Below are positions 1-8,705 of a DNA stretch of 39,708 bases, piece after piece (position 1 is the first letter of the stretch; each line of letters starts with the position of its first letter). The notes beneath the pieces were generated by a model, which was not told the DNA's origin, did no database searches, and saw only the letters and a program-made list of their open reading frames with translations. Both the position numbers and the translations under genes were made by a program. The stretch is taken from the IMG/VR virus record IMGVR_UViG_2909288124_000005, positions 1 through 39,708 of that record; one strand, 5' to 3'. The DNA is from a virus (lineage: Duplodnaviria; Heunggongvirae; Uroviricota; Caudoviricetes).

Positions 1-582
1 ATGCGGTTGCATTTGCCAGAGCTTGACGATGTTGTTTGGATGAAGGGTGTATTGATGCTAAATGTAAGGTTTGATTCAGAAAAGGCTTTAGAGGCCATTC
101 TGTACGTCGCCTCTAAAGCACCGATCCCAGATATCTATCATGTCGGAAAAATTCTTTATTATGCTGACAGGTTTCACCTTGAAAGTTTTGGACGCCTCAT
201 AACGGGCGATCACTATAACGCTATGAAGGATGGGCCTGTAGCAAGCAACACATACGATATTATAAAAATTGCTCGTGGAGATGGACGTTACATTCCTAAT
301 GGTTGTGATGTCGATTCTGTGCGAAAAGCATTTTCTGTATCAGGTATGATGATTGTGCCGAGCCGTGAAGCTGATGAAGACTTTTTTAGTGACTCAGATT
401 TAGAGTGTATTGATAAGTCTATCGCGATGCTTGGAAACATGTCCTTTGAAGCTATCAGAACCATGAGCCATGACGCGGCATGGGAACAGGCAGATCACAA
501 TGGTGAGATGTCTTTGGAATCGATAGTTGCACAGCTAAAAAATAGCAAATTAATACTGGATTATCTGAAGAACGGATATTGA
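1..582 (+). CDS. Panacea (DUF4065)-like domain protein, possible antitoxin; may extend 5' beyond window
   Basis: Stretch GKILYYADRFHLESFGRLITGDHYNAMKDGPV matches my recollection of the Panacea signature; ORF begins at window edge. Confidence 0.45.
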   Translation: MRLHLPELDDVVWMKGVLMLNVRFDSEKALEAILYVASKAPIPDIYHVGKILYYADRFHLESFGRLITGDHYNAMKDGPVASNTYDIIKIARGDGRYIPNGCDVDSVRKAFSVSGMMIVPSREADEDFFSDSDLECIDKSIAMLGNMSFEAIRTMSHDAAWEQADHNGEMSLESIVAQLKNSKLILDYLKNGY

Positions 583-1049
583 TACTTATGCTGGGTGATT
601 GTTTCCCTCCTGATTTTAAGGCTAATTTTAGTCATGAAAGAGGTATATCACCCGGTGATGTATTGTATCTTCATTGTGATTTTACGACCCCACCTAAAGT
701 AAAATATATGGTGGTTGTTTGCTGTGAACCTCTTTTAGTTCTTCTAATAAATTCAGATATAAATGAATTTATTAAGAGAAACAATGATCTTATGGCTTGT
801 CAGGTCGAAATTAATAGAGAGGACCATGATTTTCTTAAATGGGACTCATTTGTTAATTGCATTGAGGCTCATGCTGCTTTCGATCTTGAAATTATTAAAG
901 AGAAAATAGCCATCCAATATGGCGACGTGCTAAAAGGTCGCATTACAGATCATTGTATGAGACAAGTTCGATGTGCAGTTGAGATATCTAAAATCATGGT
1001 TAAACGGCATAAAAAACTGATACTCGCTGCTCTTCAACATTATGAATAA
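579..1049 (+). CDS. Hypothetical 156-aa protein coupled to the upstream Panacea-like gene (candidate toxin/effector)
   Basis: TTG at 579 overlaps upstream stop TGA 580-582; alternative ATG at 588; visibly AT-rich; no domain recognised. Confidence 0.5.
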   Translation: MILMLGDCFPPDFKANFSHERGISPGDVLYLHCDFTTPPKVKYMVVVCCEPLLVLLINSDINEFIKRNNDLMACQVEINREDHDFLKWDSFVNCIEAHAAFDLEIIKEKIAIQYGDVLKGRITDHCMRQVRCAVEISKIMVKRHKKLILAALQHYE

Positions 1050-3720: not shown

Positions 3721-4545
3721 TCAGGCGGTGAAAGTACCAATAAAGGTTTCTACTTTGCTGTCTTTAAATTTCTCAACAAGCAGATCACGAAATTCGTTAG
3801 CCATTTCTTCCTGCACCGCTTCCAGCTGAATAATGCGCAGAACCAGTACAGGACGATCGCCAGTGATAATGCTGAGGCGTAATTTAAACGGACGTTCTTT
3901 AAGGCCTTCAAACGGAACGCATTTAAATTCAAATGCCACTGGCATAATGTCTTTGGTCTTCGCTTCGACAGACTCCATCAGGGAGCGTTTGCCGCTGAAG
4001 TCATTATCTTCAAAATCAGCGGTCTGGTTTGCTTCAATCGTGATTTTACGGACTGCCGCAGCCGCTTTTGTTGCCTGAATGGCGTCACCATTCGCATCAA
4101 AGCCCACAAGGTAGTCGGCCCAGTCTTCAATCCATTCTGCCAGTGACTTCTGGGAGTTACGCTCGCCGTTAACAGACAACAGAGCAGAGAACGGTGCTGT
4201 CTTTTTCAGTTTGAGAGTGGCGGTGTTATCTGCGTGACCTGGTTCATCAATAGTACCCAGGTTAAGCACACTAACGGCACGCATATTATCAGCATCGATA
4301 AAGCAGCGGGTGCCTTCATCTGCAAGATCTTTAGAATAACGGGTAAAATCATCGATGCTGGCAGTGGAAAGCGCGCCACGGAAACGGAAGCGATTTAAAT
4401 TAAATTTTTCCAGATCATGAATGCGGAAATTCTCAGGCAATGCCACAGCATCGGCACCAATCTTACTGATAATTTCATTAACACCCTGAGCAGAAATAAG
4501 GGCATGGATTTGATTAATTGCGGTTGCGTCTAAGTTCTGAGACAT
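3721..4545 (-). CDS. DUF2303-like phage protein (YfdQ-like)
   Basis: 274 aa, same length and position as CPS-53 yfdQ by recollection. Confidence 0.45.
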
Positions 4546-4610: not shown

Positions 4611-4973
4611 TTAATGACCTGCTGCGCGGAGTTTTCCGTCAGGTTCACCGGCAAGAGTCAGTAATTGTCCCTGGTCTTCCTGCAGAATAGTCAGGCGACC
4701 ACCGCGATTGACATACATCGGCGTTTCGGTGGTGTCTTCTTCGGAAATTTTCCCGCGGTTAGTCGGGCGAACATATGAGAGTTTGTGTTTGATTTTCACA
4801 CGGTTCTCATCAAATGGTTCGATTTCCAGGTTGAGTGAGACCTTACCTTTGGTTTTCGTGTTCATCACACCTGAAGCGACTTCACTGAGAACTGCGCCGA
4901 TTTTGGTTTCAAATACGCCGCCGTCCAGCTCCCCGATAAATGCCTGCACATCAGTACTGCGTTCGCTAGCCAT
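4611..4973 (-). CDS. Hypothetical phage protein (YfdP-position), 120 aa
   Basis: Start chosen at ATG 4973 preceded by GAGGAG RBS; the 100-codon in-frame upstream extension looks non-coding. Confidence 0.45.
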   Translation of the reverse strand: MASERSTDVQAFIGELDGGVFETKIGAVLSEVASGVMNTKTKGKVSLNLEIEPFDENRVKIKHKLSYVRPTNRGKISEEDTTETPMYVNRGGRLTILQEDQGQLLTLAGEPDGKLRAAGH

Positions 4974-5410
4974 TTTGCTGCTCCTCATCATATCGACCCT
5001 GCAAGGTCGGTTGGTTTCTCCACAAAACAGAGAAGAACACCTGCGGTGGCAGCCGCCCGGATGGATTGGGTTATGAGCCCGTCGTCCGGTGATGCTCTTC
5101 TCTGTTTTGTAAAAAGGACGGTACCAGCCGGAAGCAAGGGTACAAGCTGGTACCGCCAGGACTACACACAGCATAAAGTTGTGGTGCCGGGTGCCTCCCG
5201 GTGCCTGGCGAAGGTTGCACACCAGGCGGGTGGGTATCCACAGAAGGTCGACTGTCAGCCTCAACCTTAACCCGCGTGCGCTGAGCCGCATTCACCACAA
5301 CGCCAAGGATTCTCTTTGGTTGAAAATACTTAGCTGTTATGTGCCTGTCTTTTCACCACTTCAGGCTCGGTGGTATCCTTTTAAGCCCGTATACATAAAA
5401 GGAAAATCAA

Positions 5411-5656
5411 ATGACTTTTGATGAAAAAGAACTTGATAATGCAATTAATAAAATCATCGTAACGTCGCTCTTTTCCTGTCTCAGCGACACTCAGCAGAAA
5501 CAGTTCTACGAATCGGCTTTCAACATGATCGAGCGTTGTTGTTTCTGCGATGCCGACGAGTTACCTGAAAAAATCAGGAAACAGTTGGCTGATGCTCTTC
5601 GAGTGCGACTTTCTGACCAATTTTCTGAAATGTGCTCTCCGAATTTGGACAAATAG
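5411..5656 (+). CDS. Small hypothetical protein (81 aa)
   Basis: Protein-like composition, AAAGGAAAA upstream; its 3' end converges with and overlaps the 5574..5849 ORF. Confidence 0.3.
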   Translation: MTFDEKELDNAINKIIVTSLFSCLSDTQQKQFYESAFNMIERCCFCDADELPEKIRKQLADALRVRLSDQFSEMCSPNLDK

Positions 5657-5849
5657 AAAAAGGCCATTTCCATTCAGGGTCTGATGGAAATACTTCAGCC
5701 TGTTCCAAAGCACGGCGTAAAGAGAATACAACTCCAGCCATAATCTGATGTTTCCCATTGGTCCAGCTATCGCCGCTCTGATCTACAGGAGCGGCTATGT
5801 CGTATGACCAAACGACTTCACCACTATTGTTTAAAATCTGGACTTTCAT
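5574..5849 (-). CDS. Small hypothetical protein (91 aa), first gene position of leftward operon
   Basis: ATG at 5849 preceded by strong GGAGG RBS; an internal hairpin plus T-run at 5655-5691 makes its distal part uncertain. Confidence 0.35.
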   Translation of the reverse strand: MKVQILNNSGEVVWSYDIAAPVDQSGDSWTNGKHQIMAGVVFSLRRALEQAEVFPSDPEWKWPFSICPNSESTFQKIGQKVALEEHQPTVS

Positions 5850-6240
5850 TTTGTTCTTTAACCTCCAGATACGGGCGTTTAATGGCCCCGCCGAACAGCT
5901 CTTTTCCGCAATAGCTGCAATGTCTTTCGCGCATCAGCCTGCGCATTCACCACAACGCTGAGAGCACTTAGCCAGTTACGGCACCACACTTTGTCGCGGT
6001 TCCATAAATGCCCTCATCGTTGCACCCTGGTCTCTTCCCAGGTGTCAAACCGAACCGCCACGCTGGTTAGGCGTCTTATCAGCATCATCATTGACTTGCA
6101 CATTCCGGCTACCTGGTTTGTTTGCCCGAGCAAGGAGTGGATTGTCCCCTTTAACGTCCCCAGACCGCTAACGACGCATGTGCCATACGCCGTGTTACAA
6201 CCAAATTTTGTTTAATCTTGCCTGTGACATGTTTCTTTTA

Positions 6241-6255
6241 GATACATTATGTATC
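6241..6255. promoter_or_regulatory. Putative OL-type operator palindrome
   Basis: GATACATTATGTATC perfect palindrome; ATACAT half-site recurs between cI and cro. Confidence 0.35.
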
Positions 6256-6275
6256 TCAAGGGTACATTGTCAAGT

Positions 6276-6300
6276 ATAAAAAAACCTGCCGAAGCAGGTT
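6276..6300 (-). terminator. Intrinsic terminator downstream of cI
   Basis: AACCTGC-CGAA-GCAGGTT hairpin (6283-6300) followed on minus strand by T-run (6276-6282), 12 bp after cI stop. Confidence 0.55.
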
Positions 6301-6311
6301 ATAAATATTGA

Positions 6312-6986
6312 TTAGGCCTTTATTTTGTATCTTCTTGGTTTTCCTGAGAAAATTACTGTACCAATTATAGAGCAATTACCGTTGATCTTAATGTAAGGTT
6401 CAGGCCAGTTTGGGTTTAATGCTTTGAGGTAACGCTGTGTTCCATCTTCTATCAACCGCTTAAAGGTGGTTTCGCCTGTATCGTGCATCAATGCAATAAC
6501 GTCGTCACCGTGGCAGGCAGGGACTTCAGGATCTACAAAAATCATGTCTCCCGGGCGGTACTCATCAATCATTGAATCACCAATCACCCGCAAGATATAA
6601 GTCATTTCGCCACAGGGTACAGGGCAGGGATAAGTTTCTGCTGTGCTCAAATCAACCTCAGAATAGCCAACTTCTTTCCATGCTCCGGCCTGTACCCATG
6701 ATATGACAGGGACTAACGTTATTTGTTTGTTAGTAATTGAAACATCAGGTTTTTTTGTGATGTTTGTTGTCTGGTGTTCTTGATCAAGCCATCCGACAGG
6801 CAGGTCGAAACATTTTTCGATGTGCCGTGCCATGCTGTCACCGATATTTTTAGTAGCACCATCTCCCATAAACCTGCTGGTCTGGGTTGGCTCGCGATCA
6901 ATCATGGTGGCAAAGGAAGAATTCCCGCCAACACCATCTCTCAGTTTTCTGGCGTTAGACCGCCGGATGTCATGGACTGTTTTCAT
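6312..6986 (-). CDS. CI-like repressor, HTH plus S24 (LexA-like) autopeptidase
   Basis: C-terminal GDSM...GD...VDP motifs typical of S24 peptidases; divergent from Cro-like gene. Confidence 0.8.
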   Translation of the reverse strand: MKTVHDIRRSNARKLRDGVGGNSSFATMIDREPTQTSRFMGDGATKNIGDSMARHIEKCFDLPVGWLDQEHQTTNITKKPDVSITNKQITLVPVISWVQAGAWKEVGYSEVDLSTAETYPCPVPCGEMTYILRVIGDSMIDEYRPGDMIFVDPEVPACHGDDVIALMHDTGETTFKRLIEDGTQRYLKALNPNWPEPYIKINGNCSIIGTVIFSGKPRRYKIKA

Positions 6987-7308: not shown

Positions 7309-7872
7309 ATGAGGCTAACCGTGGGTAAGCATCACTGGAAAGTAGAAAAACAGCCTGAGTGGTACGTGAAAGCTGTCAGAAAAACTATCGCGGCGTTGCC
7401 GGGGGGTTACGCTGAAGCTGCTGAGTGGCTGGATGTAACAGAGAACGCTTTATTCAACCGCCTTCGTGCAGATGGCGATCAGATTTTCCCGCTGGGATGG
7501 GCAATGATTTTACAGCGCGCGGCTGGCACTCACTACATTGCGGATGCTGTCGCACAGTCTGCTGGTGGGGTGTTTGTATCGCTTCCTGAAATTGAGGAAG
7601 TAGAGAACGCCGATATAAACCAGCGCCTGCTGGAAGTCATCGAACAGATCGGGAGTTACTCAAAGCAGATTCGTTCGGCAATCGAAGATGGGGTAGTGGA
7701 GCCACACGAGCAGACAGCAATTAATGATGAGTTGTATCTGTCAATTTCGAAGCTCCAGGAGCATGCAGCACTGGTCTACAAAATCTTTTGCGCTCCAGAA
7801 AAGAGTGACGCCCGCGAGTGTGCAGCTCCGGGCGTCGTGGCGTTTTGTGTCTGTGGAGAAACTAACGCATGA
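7309..7872 (+). CDS. CII-like phage regulatory protein
   Basis: Position immediately after cro; family assignment from memory only. Confidence 0.3.
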   Translation: MRLTVGKHHWKVEKQPEWYVKAVRKTIAALPGGYAEAAEWLDVTENALFNRLRADGDQIFPLGWAMILQRAAGTHYIADAVAQSAGGVFVSLPEIEEVENADINQRLLEVIEQIGSYSKQIRSAIEDGVVEPHEQTAINDELYLSISKLQEHAALVYKIFCAPEKSDARECAAPGVVAFCVCGETNA

Positions 7873-8705
7873 ACAGTTTAACGGCAAATAACCGTTTGTC
7901 GCAACAGCTGGTGGTCAGCGTCGCTGAACACCTGTTGTTACGGCATGAATGCAGATTACCAAATCACCTGGCTGTAAGTAACCACAGAGAACTTTACCTG
8001 ACTGTGGGGGGCGAGTTGTGCAGGAACTTAACCGCTGGTTTCGTGACGGAAGAGGGCTTTATGTCCATGTTATTCGTTGGGAGCCAGAAACACAGCGCGT
8101 TATCTATCTTCGCAAAGACTACCCGCATGAGTGCTTTAGTCCTTTGTGGAAATTCAGGCGTGATTTTGTTGAGTGTGAAGGACCACCAGCACATTGATTC
8201 TGCCATTCCGGGACGTTACACTGTTCAGGCACCTTATAAAGCGGGTGTCGGGATTGGCGTCCTGGAATTGCATACGGCGACAATTGGCGCGTTAGCGTCT
8301 TTTTTGTTGCTACAACTCAGCTATACCCAAATTATGGTGGGCTGGGTGGGGGCACCGAAAGGTGCGCCGGTTTCCGTATGCGCCGGTTACGCCAACCCTG
8401 CTCAGTTCACCACCAGCGAAATTGGCGTTTCCGGTGGTGGAAGTTATCCATTGCATACGGAGGCTGCCATCATGGCTACTGTCCCAGCCCTCACTCGTCT
8501 GAATGATGAAGACTTACATAAACTCAGTTATGTAACAACTGCACTACGTGCTCTGCGCAAGGTAACTCTTTCGGATCCGCAGGCGCATCAAGTTCTGGTA
8601 GAAACCCTTCTTAACTTGCAGGCTGAACGTATTCGTCTGGCGGATAAGACTAATTTTCATATTCACCGTCTCCTGAATATCAGCGGAGGGCATCGTCATG
8701 CTTAA
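7869..8705 (+). CDS. Hypothetical protein (278 aa)
   Basis: Long open frame, start overlaps upstream stop (ATGA) and end overlaps next start; no domain recognised. Confidence 0.4.
   Translation: MNSLTANNRLSQQLVVSVAEHLLLRHECRLPNHLAVSNHRELYLTVGGELCRNLTAGFVTEEGFMSMLFVGSQKHSALSIFAKTTRMSALVLCGNSGVILLSVKDHQHIDSAIPGRYTVQAPYKAGVGIGVLELHTATIGALASFLLLQLSYTQIMVGWVGAPKGAPVSVCAGYANPAQFTTSEIGVSGGGSYPLHTEAAIMATVPALTRLNDEDLHKLSYVTTALRALRKVTLSDPQAHQVLVETLLNLQAERIRLADKTNFHIHRLLNISGGHRHA

Follow-up and report, generated by a model that had tools for sequence, protein, structure and literature searches.

We analyzed a 39,708-nucleotide (nt) stretch of viral DNA (IMG/VR record IMGVR_UViG_2909288124_000005; hereafter, the window), which is an SfV/e14/CPS-53-type lambdoid prophage of Escherichia coli or Shigella, and followed up a 17-nt sequence, CGCATTCACCACAACGC, that brackets two small open reading frames (ORFs) beside the repressor gene. 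The repressor is encoded by a cI-like gene (6312-6986, minus strand) carrying a Peptidase_S24 domain, and on its other side the region adjoins the leftward genes yfdP (4611-4973, read from 4973 to 4611) and DUF2303/yfdQ (3721-4545), a setting that agrees with the original prediction. A near-consensus promoter upstream of the region (6273 to 6246) is taken as the putative leftward promoter, pL, and is overlapped by an operator-like inverted repeat at 6229-6267. The order along the leftward transcript is a leader, here called leader D, followed by the repeat-bracketed interval, yfdP, and yfdQ/DUF2303. The features of the region, together with cassettes found at the same position in related prophages, are collected in Table 1.

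Table 1. Features of the region between the cI-like gene and yfdP, and cassettes occupying the same slot elsewhere. Positions are those of the window unless another locus is named; the direction of reading is given in parentheses. aa, amino acids.
Feature	Position	Strand	Remarks
Intrinsic terminator of cI-like gene	6283-6300 (6300 to 6283)	-	Strong
Putative pL promoter	6246-6273 (6273 to 6246)	-	TTGACA-16-CATAAT, 11/12; position matches the promoter annotated in phage Ayreon
pL leader D	5959-6229 (6229 to 5959)	-	~270 nt, structured, noncoding; common to cdtI/Ayreon-type phages
17-mer copy 2	5942-5958	-	First 17 nt of truncated element E3
E3, 5′ fragment of second STnc100-like allele	5871-5958 (5958 to 5871)	-	88 of ~147 nt; complete in class-a phages, e.g., L009
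ORF91	5574-5849	-	91 aa; phrog_3195 (unknown-function family); first gene downstream of pL
Hairpin and U-run inside ORF91	5662-5695	-	Terminator-like in this lineage only, not consistently conserved
ORF81	5411-5656	+	81 aa; phrog_3311 (unknown-function family); antisense to the pL operon
Conserved hairpin block	5343-5378	+	GCCTGTCTTTTCACCACTTCAGGCTCGGTGGTATCC; ~35 nt upstream of the ORF81 start; mosaic breakpoint 5373/5377
17-mer copy 1	5287-5303	-	Reads GC + GUUGUGGUG + AAU + GCG; part of intact element E1
E1 core	5178-5301 (5301 to 5178)	-	Closing helix P1: 5293-5301 pairs with 5178-5186
KilS/DicF-like 3′ module	5111-5174 (5174 to 5111)	-	21 nt as in KilS, terminator, U-tract
Long inverted repeat	5022-5110	-	25-nt arms, 84% complementary; predicted stem -47.8 kcal/mol
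e14 cassette	L133 1930-2517		pL-sense ymfJ, rightward ymfI; overlap 63 nt
L041 cassette	L041 8553-8954		pL-sense 68 aa, rightward 77 aa; overlap 39 nt
L032 cassette	L032 6064-6691		pL-sense 73 aa, rightward 144 aa; overlap 29 nt
Rac cassette			pL-sense ydaF, rightward sieB

The window was found to contain exactly two copies of the 17-mer, both identical to it and both on the plus strand, in the direct arrangement that had originally been described. A search of the whole window allowing up to two mismatches gave no further match, and the number of matches expected by chance, from dinucleotide shuffles, was 0.01. Read on the minus strand, that is, in the leftward pL transcript, the 17-mer was shown by comparison of alleles to be the conserved 5′ end of a predicted structured RNA of the STnc100 family. 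A permissive search with the Rfam STnc100 model (RF02076) produced a minus-strand match from 5323 to 5108 that covered the model over its full length (1-206) with 40.6 bits and an E value of 5e-7 for the 1.45-kb region or 1.4e-5 for the whole window. In this intact element, designated E1, GUUGUGGUG (5301 to 5293) constitutes the 5′ strand of a 9-bp closing helix, P1, whose partner strand is CACCACAAC (5186 to 5178), while the 17-mer also supplies the AAU junction and the start of hairpin P2. Inside P1, hairpin P2 comes first and variable hairpins occupy the middle; the final hairpin, CCGGGAGGCACCCGG, directly adjoins the 3′ strand of P1.

Other alleles of the element were gathered from related phages, P1-like plasmids, and the Rac prophage. 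When each of nine alleles was folded alone by minimum free energy, a common fold was obtained, in which the closing helix leads through AAU to a 5-bp hairpin, then to a variable central part, and lastly to a hairpin placed directly against the helix. Covariation was then evaluated in eight alleles only, whose conserved ends were aligned. The closing helix was paired in 100% of the cells of this alignment, and four of its nine pairs were altered on both sides (G-C to A-U, U-A to A-U, and U-A to C-G). The observed values were reached by 0 of 500 shuffles, pairing dropped to 22-54% when the partner was slid, and the G-U pairs were compatible with the minus strand only.

The core of E1 is followed by a 3′ module resembling KilS and DicF. 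Its first 21 nt, UGCUGUGUGUAGUCCUGGCGG (5174 to 5154), are identical to KilS, and 52 of 67 aligned columns (78%), including this run, are identical over the module. It ends in an intrinsic terminator hairpin (5157 to 5117, -23 kcal/mol) and a U-tract (5115 to 5111). KilS is a small RNA from the 5′ untranslated region of kilR in Rac that was found by Hfq RIL-seq and verified by Northern blotting (PMC8175672); KilS itself scored 39.1 bits against the DicF covariance model, and an STnc100-like core also lies directly upstream of kilR. STnc100 is present in multiple transcribed copies in the prophages of enterohemorrhagic E. coli (strain EDL933), where one copy was verified by Northern blotting and some carry ribosome footprints (PMC5331693), and a relationship between STnc100 and PasD, a prophage small RNA, is described in a 2026 preprint.

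STnc100 itself, a prophage small RNA of Salmonella and E. coli, resembles E1 in its strand, closing helix, 3′ hairpin (CACCGGGAGGCACCCGG), and terminator; it is likewise borne by lambdoid prophages, and the family is multiallelic with differing putative seed regions. The difference is that the window match lies below the cutoff and is accompanied by a truncated second copy of an allele not detected by Rfam. KilS (Rac) and DicF (Qin) share with the window an equivalent terminator and the location of the module immediately ahead of the following gene in the early leftward operon. In Rac, however, the KilS module comes before a separate STnc100-like core and not, as in the window, after the core, and the gene downstream in the window is yfdP rather than a kil-type division inhibitor.

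The second copy of the 17-mer belongs to a different allele, E3. The window matched the full 147-nt allele of L009 over 5871-5958 only; the window lacks the 3′ ~60 nt of E3, to which the 3′ strand of P1 belongs, and has a single 3′ helix strand. In class-a phages, of which L009 is an example, pL and leader D are followed by a complete E3 starting with the 17-mer, the shared terminator, and yfdP, without ORF81 or ORF91. In SfV-type phages, ORF91/ORF81 are followed by allele E1, and only one 17-mer is present. The order in the window is leader D and the first 88 nt of E3, then the ORF91/ORF81 cassette, and then the complete E1. Homology mapping against 130 related loci revealed a dense mosaic with recurrent breakpoints at 5005-5011, 5158, 5373/5377, 5808, 5851, 5870/5871, 5956-5978, 6007, 6204/6212, and 6230. 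By this mapping, the window prophage was shown to be an apparent recombinant of a lineage with the order pL, leader D, and E3 and an SfV-like lineage with the order ORF91/ORF81 and E1, and the 17-mer would occur twice because of this dual origin. The two-copy layout is rare, with 2 of 5426 E. coli genomes covering at least 80% of it. A 40-aa ORF (MRRLMRERHCSYCGK...; 5824-5946, minus strand) starts at an ATG in 17-mer copy 2 and overlaps the start of ORF91; its counterpart in class-a phages has 25 aa, it is unconserved between alleles, and it is probably noncoding.

It had originally been suggested that the repeat might be either an insertion scar or a duplicated regulatory site, and neither proposal stood up to the comparison of alleles and loci. 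An insertion scar would be a 17-bp target site duplicated by a mobile cassette of ~640 bp, a notion that gains from the two exact direct copies bracketing a discrete cassette and from the variation of cassettes at this slot between phages. Target-site duplication predicts an empty site, however, and when 124 exact occurrences of the 17-mer in viral contigs were classed by left (L) and right (R) flank type, the corresponding L1-17-mer-R2 junction was never observed (L1R1, 89; L2R2, 25; L2Rx, 5; LxRx, 3; L2R1, 1; L1R?, 1; L1R2, 0), so that the search of related prophages for a site lacking the insert came out against a scar. Most loci with both ORFs, such as SfV, have copy 1 only, and each 17-mer sits in a longer, differing allele of a structured RNA. 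The interval contains only ORF81 and ORF91, which are without family matches, and no transposase, integrase, or terminal inverted repeats; moreover, the other breakpoints (5158, 5373/77, 5808, 5851, and 5870) fall at other conserved patches. A scar is for these reasons the least credible of the explanations considered. Junctions at the 17-mer itself were also observed: L027 is an L2R1 recombinant joined inside the 17-mer, L062 diverges at 5956, and cdtI/Ayreon homology begins at 5941. As judged from such junctions, the conserved RNA segments are homology patches for module exchange, and the 17-mer is a recombination linker and no target-site duplication. Mosaic lambdoid genomes have conserved linker (boundary) sequences at module junctions, and such sequences have been described for HK620/Sf6-type phages; the modular theory of lambdoid genomes reportedly goes back to Susskind and Botstein. 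The window linker is likewise a short conserved stretch at which recombinant junctions fall (L027, L062, and the cdtI boundary), but it is conserved as part of a functional RNA helix rather than as a mere neutral homology patch. As for a duplicated DNA site, at which repressor, Cro, or another protein would bind and loop or bracket the cassette, it is favored by the exact repeats lying ~650 bp apart near the immunity region. At pL and in the cI-cro interval, however, the operator-like palindromes are built on GGTACA/TGTACC and are unlike the 17-mer; the motif shows the covariation of an RNA helix with a partner strand 110-140 nt distant, including G-U pairs on one strand only; and it is also present within tRNA operons of P1-like plasmids. 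We therefore consider a protein-binding site extremely improbable.

Two further explanations give the element another role. In the first, it would act in cis in processive antitermination, either nut-like with an N-type protein or put-like without one, to allow pL transcription to read through the terminator. This proposal, which we regard as improbable, is favored by the position of the element between pL and the first intrinsic terminator and by a boxA-like string, UGCUCUCA, just 5′ of copy 2 and followed by a 5-bp hairpin (GCGCA-GGCUGA-UGCGC). Against it, the rightward operon has no copy of the element, and the gap between cro and the cII-like gene is too small for one; ORF91 has neither an arginine-rich motif nor an arginine-rich N terminus, no N-like protein is encoded, and E1, E3, and leader D have no significant blastn similarity to the HK022 nun-pL-cI region. 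Furthermore, relatives of the 3′ module (KilS and STnc100) accumulate as discrete terminated RNAs, and in P1-like arrays the boxA-like string forms one side, the 3′ strand, of a spacer hairpin. In the second explanation, the element would encode a small protein of the ymfH type. The annotated K-12 gene ymfH (e14; L133 1502-1813, corresponding to window 4988-5291, minus strand) does begin at an ATG inside the 17-mer, the Prokaryotic Genome Annotation Pipeline calls an equivalent in APEC37 as a frameshifted hypothetical protein, and the ribosome footprints on some EDL933 STnc100 copies (PMC5331693) could be read in the same way. The frames from this ATG are wholly different between alleles past the first few codons, however, conservation tracks base pairing and not codons, and the frame in the window crosses the terminator and the long hairpin into yfdP; a coding function is thus highly improbable. 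The ymfH ORF itself crosses the STnc100-like RNA, the terminator, and the long hairpin, and it was probably called as an ORF across a structured RNA.

The sequence between the repeats holds ORF81 and ORF91, which converge and overlap at their 3′ ends by 83 nt (5574-5656). This arrangement was as first reported, but the accompanying suggestion that at most one of the two might be real was refuted: by their conservation and substitution patterns, both are real genes under purifying selection, and they always co-occur. ORF91 is preceded by GGAGG (5866 to 5862), and its homologs are 57-68% identical with conserved residues over the full length; in related loci, the homolog directly follows the repressor gene and shares its orientation, or else only an inserted gene lies between them. 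Homologs of ORF81, 44-63% identical (tblastn E values of 1e-18 to 1e-32), were found in loci L127-L132, which are Rac-like, and in L135/L136, which is more distant, and a profile search located others in Klebsiella, Salmonella, and Yersinia. Beside the repressor, the homologous pairs of L127, L130, L131/132, and L135/136 retain the convergent overlap, with 74-161 nt shared in divergent homologs. In the nonoverlapping parts of both genes, the proportion of nonsynonymous differences (pN) was 0.18-0.24 and that of synonymous differences (pS) was 0.63-0.88, while in the overlap pS fell to 0.26-0.51, as expected under double coding. The two ORFs occurred together in all 40 loci having either.

Family searches were largely silent on what these proteins do. 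For ORF81, ORF91, and yfdP, no significant family was obtained from Pfam, NCBIfam, or PADLOC, PHROGs returned unknown-function families only, and a sequence search of the PDB yielded nothing below an E value of 0.8. A profile of ORF91 run against 1.84 billion representatives recovered only 19 relatives, some with an extra N-terminal region and none with an informative domain, and its AlphaFold2 model, at a predicted local distance difference test (pLDDT) score of 44, was too poor to use. ORF81 is predicted to be a three-helix protein (pLDDT of 77) with an invariant CCxC motif, and a Foldseek search of this model against the PDB and BFVD gave no match at an E value of ≤0.001. The hairpin with a minus-strand T-run that had been noted inside ORF91 is present (ATTTCCAT...ATGGAAAT, 5666-5691); GGCU/GGCC pairing lengthens it on the minus strand, bringing it to about -14 kcal/mol, and UUUUUCUAUUUG comes directly after it. 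As a conserved attenuator it was rejected, being lost in two to three of four divergent homologs. The T-run coincides with the W-P-F-S codons of ORF91. The synonymous positions of these codons (TGG CCT TTT TC; 5650-5700, minus strand) are identical in four homologs, whereas other synonymous sites are saturated, and the conserved GGCCUUUUUC from these codons lies just past the ORF81 stop.

The position beside the repressor is an accessory slot, as the original prediction had placed it, and ORF81 lies antisense in the pL operon in the same way as Rac sieB. Unrelated cassettes at this slot have the same convergent design with overlapping 3′ ends (Table 1). The closest parallels, e14 ymfJ/ymfI and Rac ydaF/sieB, have a pL-sense gene and a convergent, 3′-overlapping rightward gene with the same upstream hairpin block but show no sequence similarity between ORF91 and YmfJ, ORF81 and YmfI, or ORF81 and SieB. 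Both ymfI-ymfJ and sieB-ydaF have been listed as convergent excludons from RNA sequencing (PMC12288877), and ymfJ of e14 shows strong late SOS induction, with the YmfJ protein detected (PMC11002266). The geometry of an excludon, namely, convergent genes with overlapping 3′ ends, was also found in ORF91/ORF81. Kinship with exclusion genes such as rexAB or sieB, which had originally been named as genes that lambdoid phages carry at this position, was not upheld: no significant match to SieB, RexA/B, or catalogued defense proteins was found in Pfam, NCBIfam, or PADLOC, and tblastn with Rac SieB matched Rac only. An exclusion or defense function of ORF81 is suggested by its sieB-like position and not by its sequence.

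A homologous hairpin block lies ~35 nt ahead of the rightward genes in the slot, namely, the ORF81 family, Rac sieB, e14 ymfI, and the 144-aa gene of L032. The block is nearly identical among prophages whose proteins share only 45-60% identity, its stem covaries (ACCGC/GCGGT in L130), and it may hold an extended -10 element (TGGTATCCT). A search for conserved sigma-70 promoters serving ORF81 or the small RNA gave weak and inconsistent candidates only. A terminator annotated in SfV, at window 5391-5423, had no corresponding hairpin there and was not used.

By analogy with these systems, the following regulation may be proposed. In the lysogen, the cI-like S24 repressor would hold pL off, and ORF81 could be expressed from its own promoter near the hairpin block. 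Upon SOS induction, cleavage of the repressor would allow transcription from pL, with ORF91 produced as an early gene, and the passage of this transcription antisense through ORF81 would lead to mutual exclusion of the excludon type. Most pL transcription would stop at the E1 terminator, releasing a small RNA of the Hfq type, and read-through past the terminator would reach yfdP, yfdQ, and the genes beyond.

The best overall explanation, to which we assign a probability of about three in four, is that an STnc100-like RNA, present in one intact and one truncated copy as a result of recombination, flanks two real genes with a presumed lysogenic/lytic regulation. Several observations weigh against it. 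The score of E1 falls short of the curated RF02076 gathering score of 47 bits, no RF02076 match was obtained in Rfam for the E3 and cdtI alleles at an E value of <0.01, and the DicF match in the window was not significant (15.9 bits, E value of 2.4, against a threshold of 48 bits). Because of this subthreshold score and the unmatched alleles, membership of the family rests on architecture and covariation, drawn from 8 to 10 alleles only, and because of the eight-allele sample and the score, the name STnc100-like element is used here in preference to that of a curated member. The recombination history was reconstructed from present-day mosaics, and the 5870/5871 junction is without obvious homology. 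Finally, the ORF81 promoter, the division between lysogenic and lytic expression, and the release of the small RNA are inferred only from analogs.

A broader proposal, which we offer tentatively and consider rather unlikely as a whole, joins two parts. The slot would be a general cassette site: at least four unrelated convergent pairs (ORF91/ORF81, ymfJ/ymfI, 68/77 aa, and 73/144 aa) fill it, plus Rac sieB, with one shared leader hairpin. The rightward gene could be a lysogen-expressed defense or exclusion gene, and its pL-sense partner, together with convergent transcription, could constitute a self-immunity switch at induction. The STnc100-like cores, as modular RNAs, may be processed like tRNAs and may have a structural role beyond base pairing.

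Several observations concern tRNA-like surroundings of the element. Leader D is partly homologous to sequence adjoining tRNA genes (tRNA-Ile) in P1-like plasmids, and ARAGORN found no tRNA in the window. In the P1-like plasmid L126 (1766-2665), four tandem STnc100-like cores follow tRNA-Thr and are parted by tRNA-like spacer hairpins (GGTAAGRGCA...TGCTCTTACC), one with a GGTTCGAATCC T-loop. Leader D has an equivalent spacer hairpin (UGAGGGCA...UGCUCUCA, ~6016 to 5961). The boxA-like string (5961-5969, minus strand), of which other alleles have the variants UGCUCUUA and UGCUCUUU, lies directly 5′ of the copy-2 closing helix and probably represents the 3′ strand of a spacer hairpin rather than a NusB/S10 site.

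Elsewhere in the region, the long inverted repeat lies directly past the small-RNA terminator and ahead of yfdP, and e14, cdtI, and class-a phages retain it. Matches to isrK RNA (58.9 bits) and C4 antisense RNA (80.7 bits) at 8229-8417, downstream of the cII-like gene, indicate a putative P1/P7 immI-type antirepressor control region, and the long ORF covering them (7869-8705) is likely spurious. At the left end of the window (1-1049), two ORFs (1-582 and 579-1049) overlap by 4 nt and resemble a two-gene module.

The finding is mostly ordinary: a known type of prophage small RNA, with one intact copy and one fragment, flanks a moron-type cassette beside the repressor, where the sequence is prone to recombination. 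The analysis disposes of a false lead, the repeat being neither a transposition scar nor an operator, and it suggests that ymfH of E. coli K-12 is an ORF called over a structured RNA. New are the recognition that the two tiny overlapping ORFs are each genes under selection and travel together, the convergent design and leader shared by several unrelated cassettes, and the apparent double use of an RNA helix as a recombination linker for swapping accessory cassettes beside the repressor. Tiny overlapping ORFs are often dropped or doubted by annotation pipelines; here, the pair spans Enterobacterales and provides a defined pair of candidate genes for lysogenic-versus-lytic functions such as exclusion.

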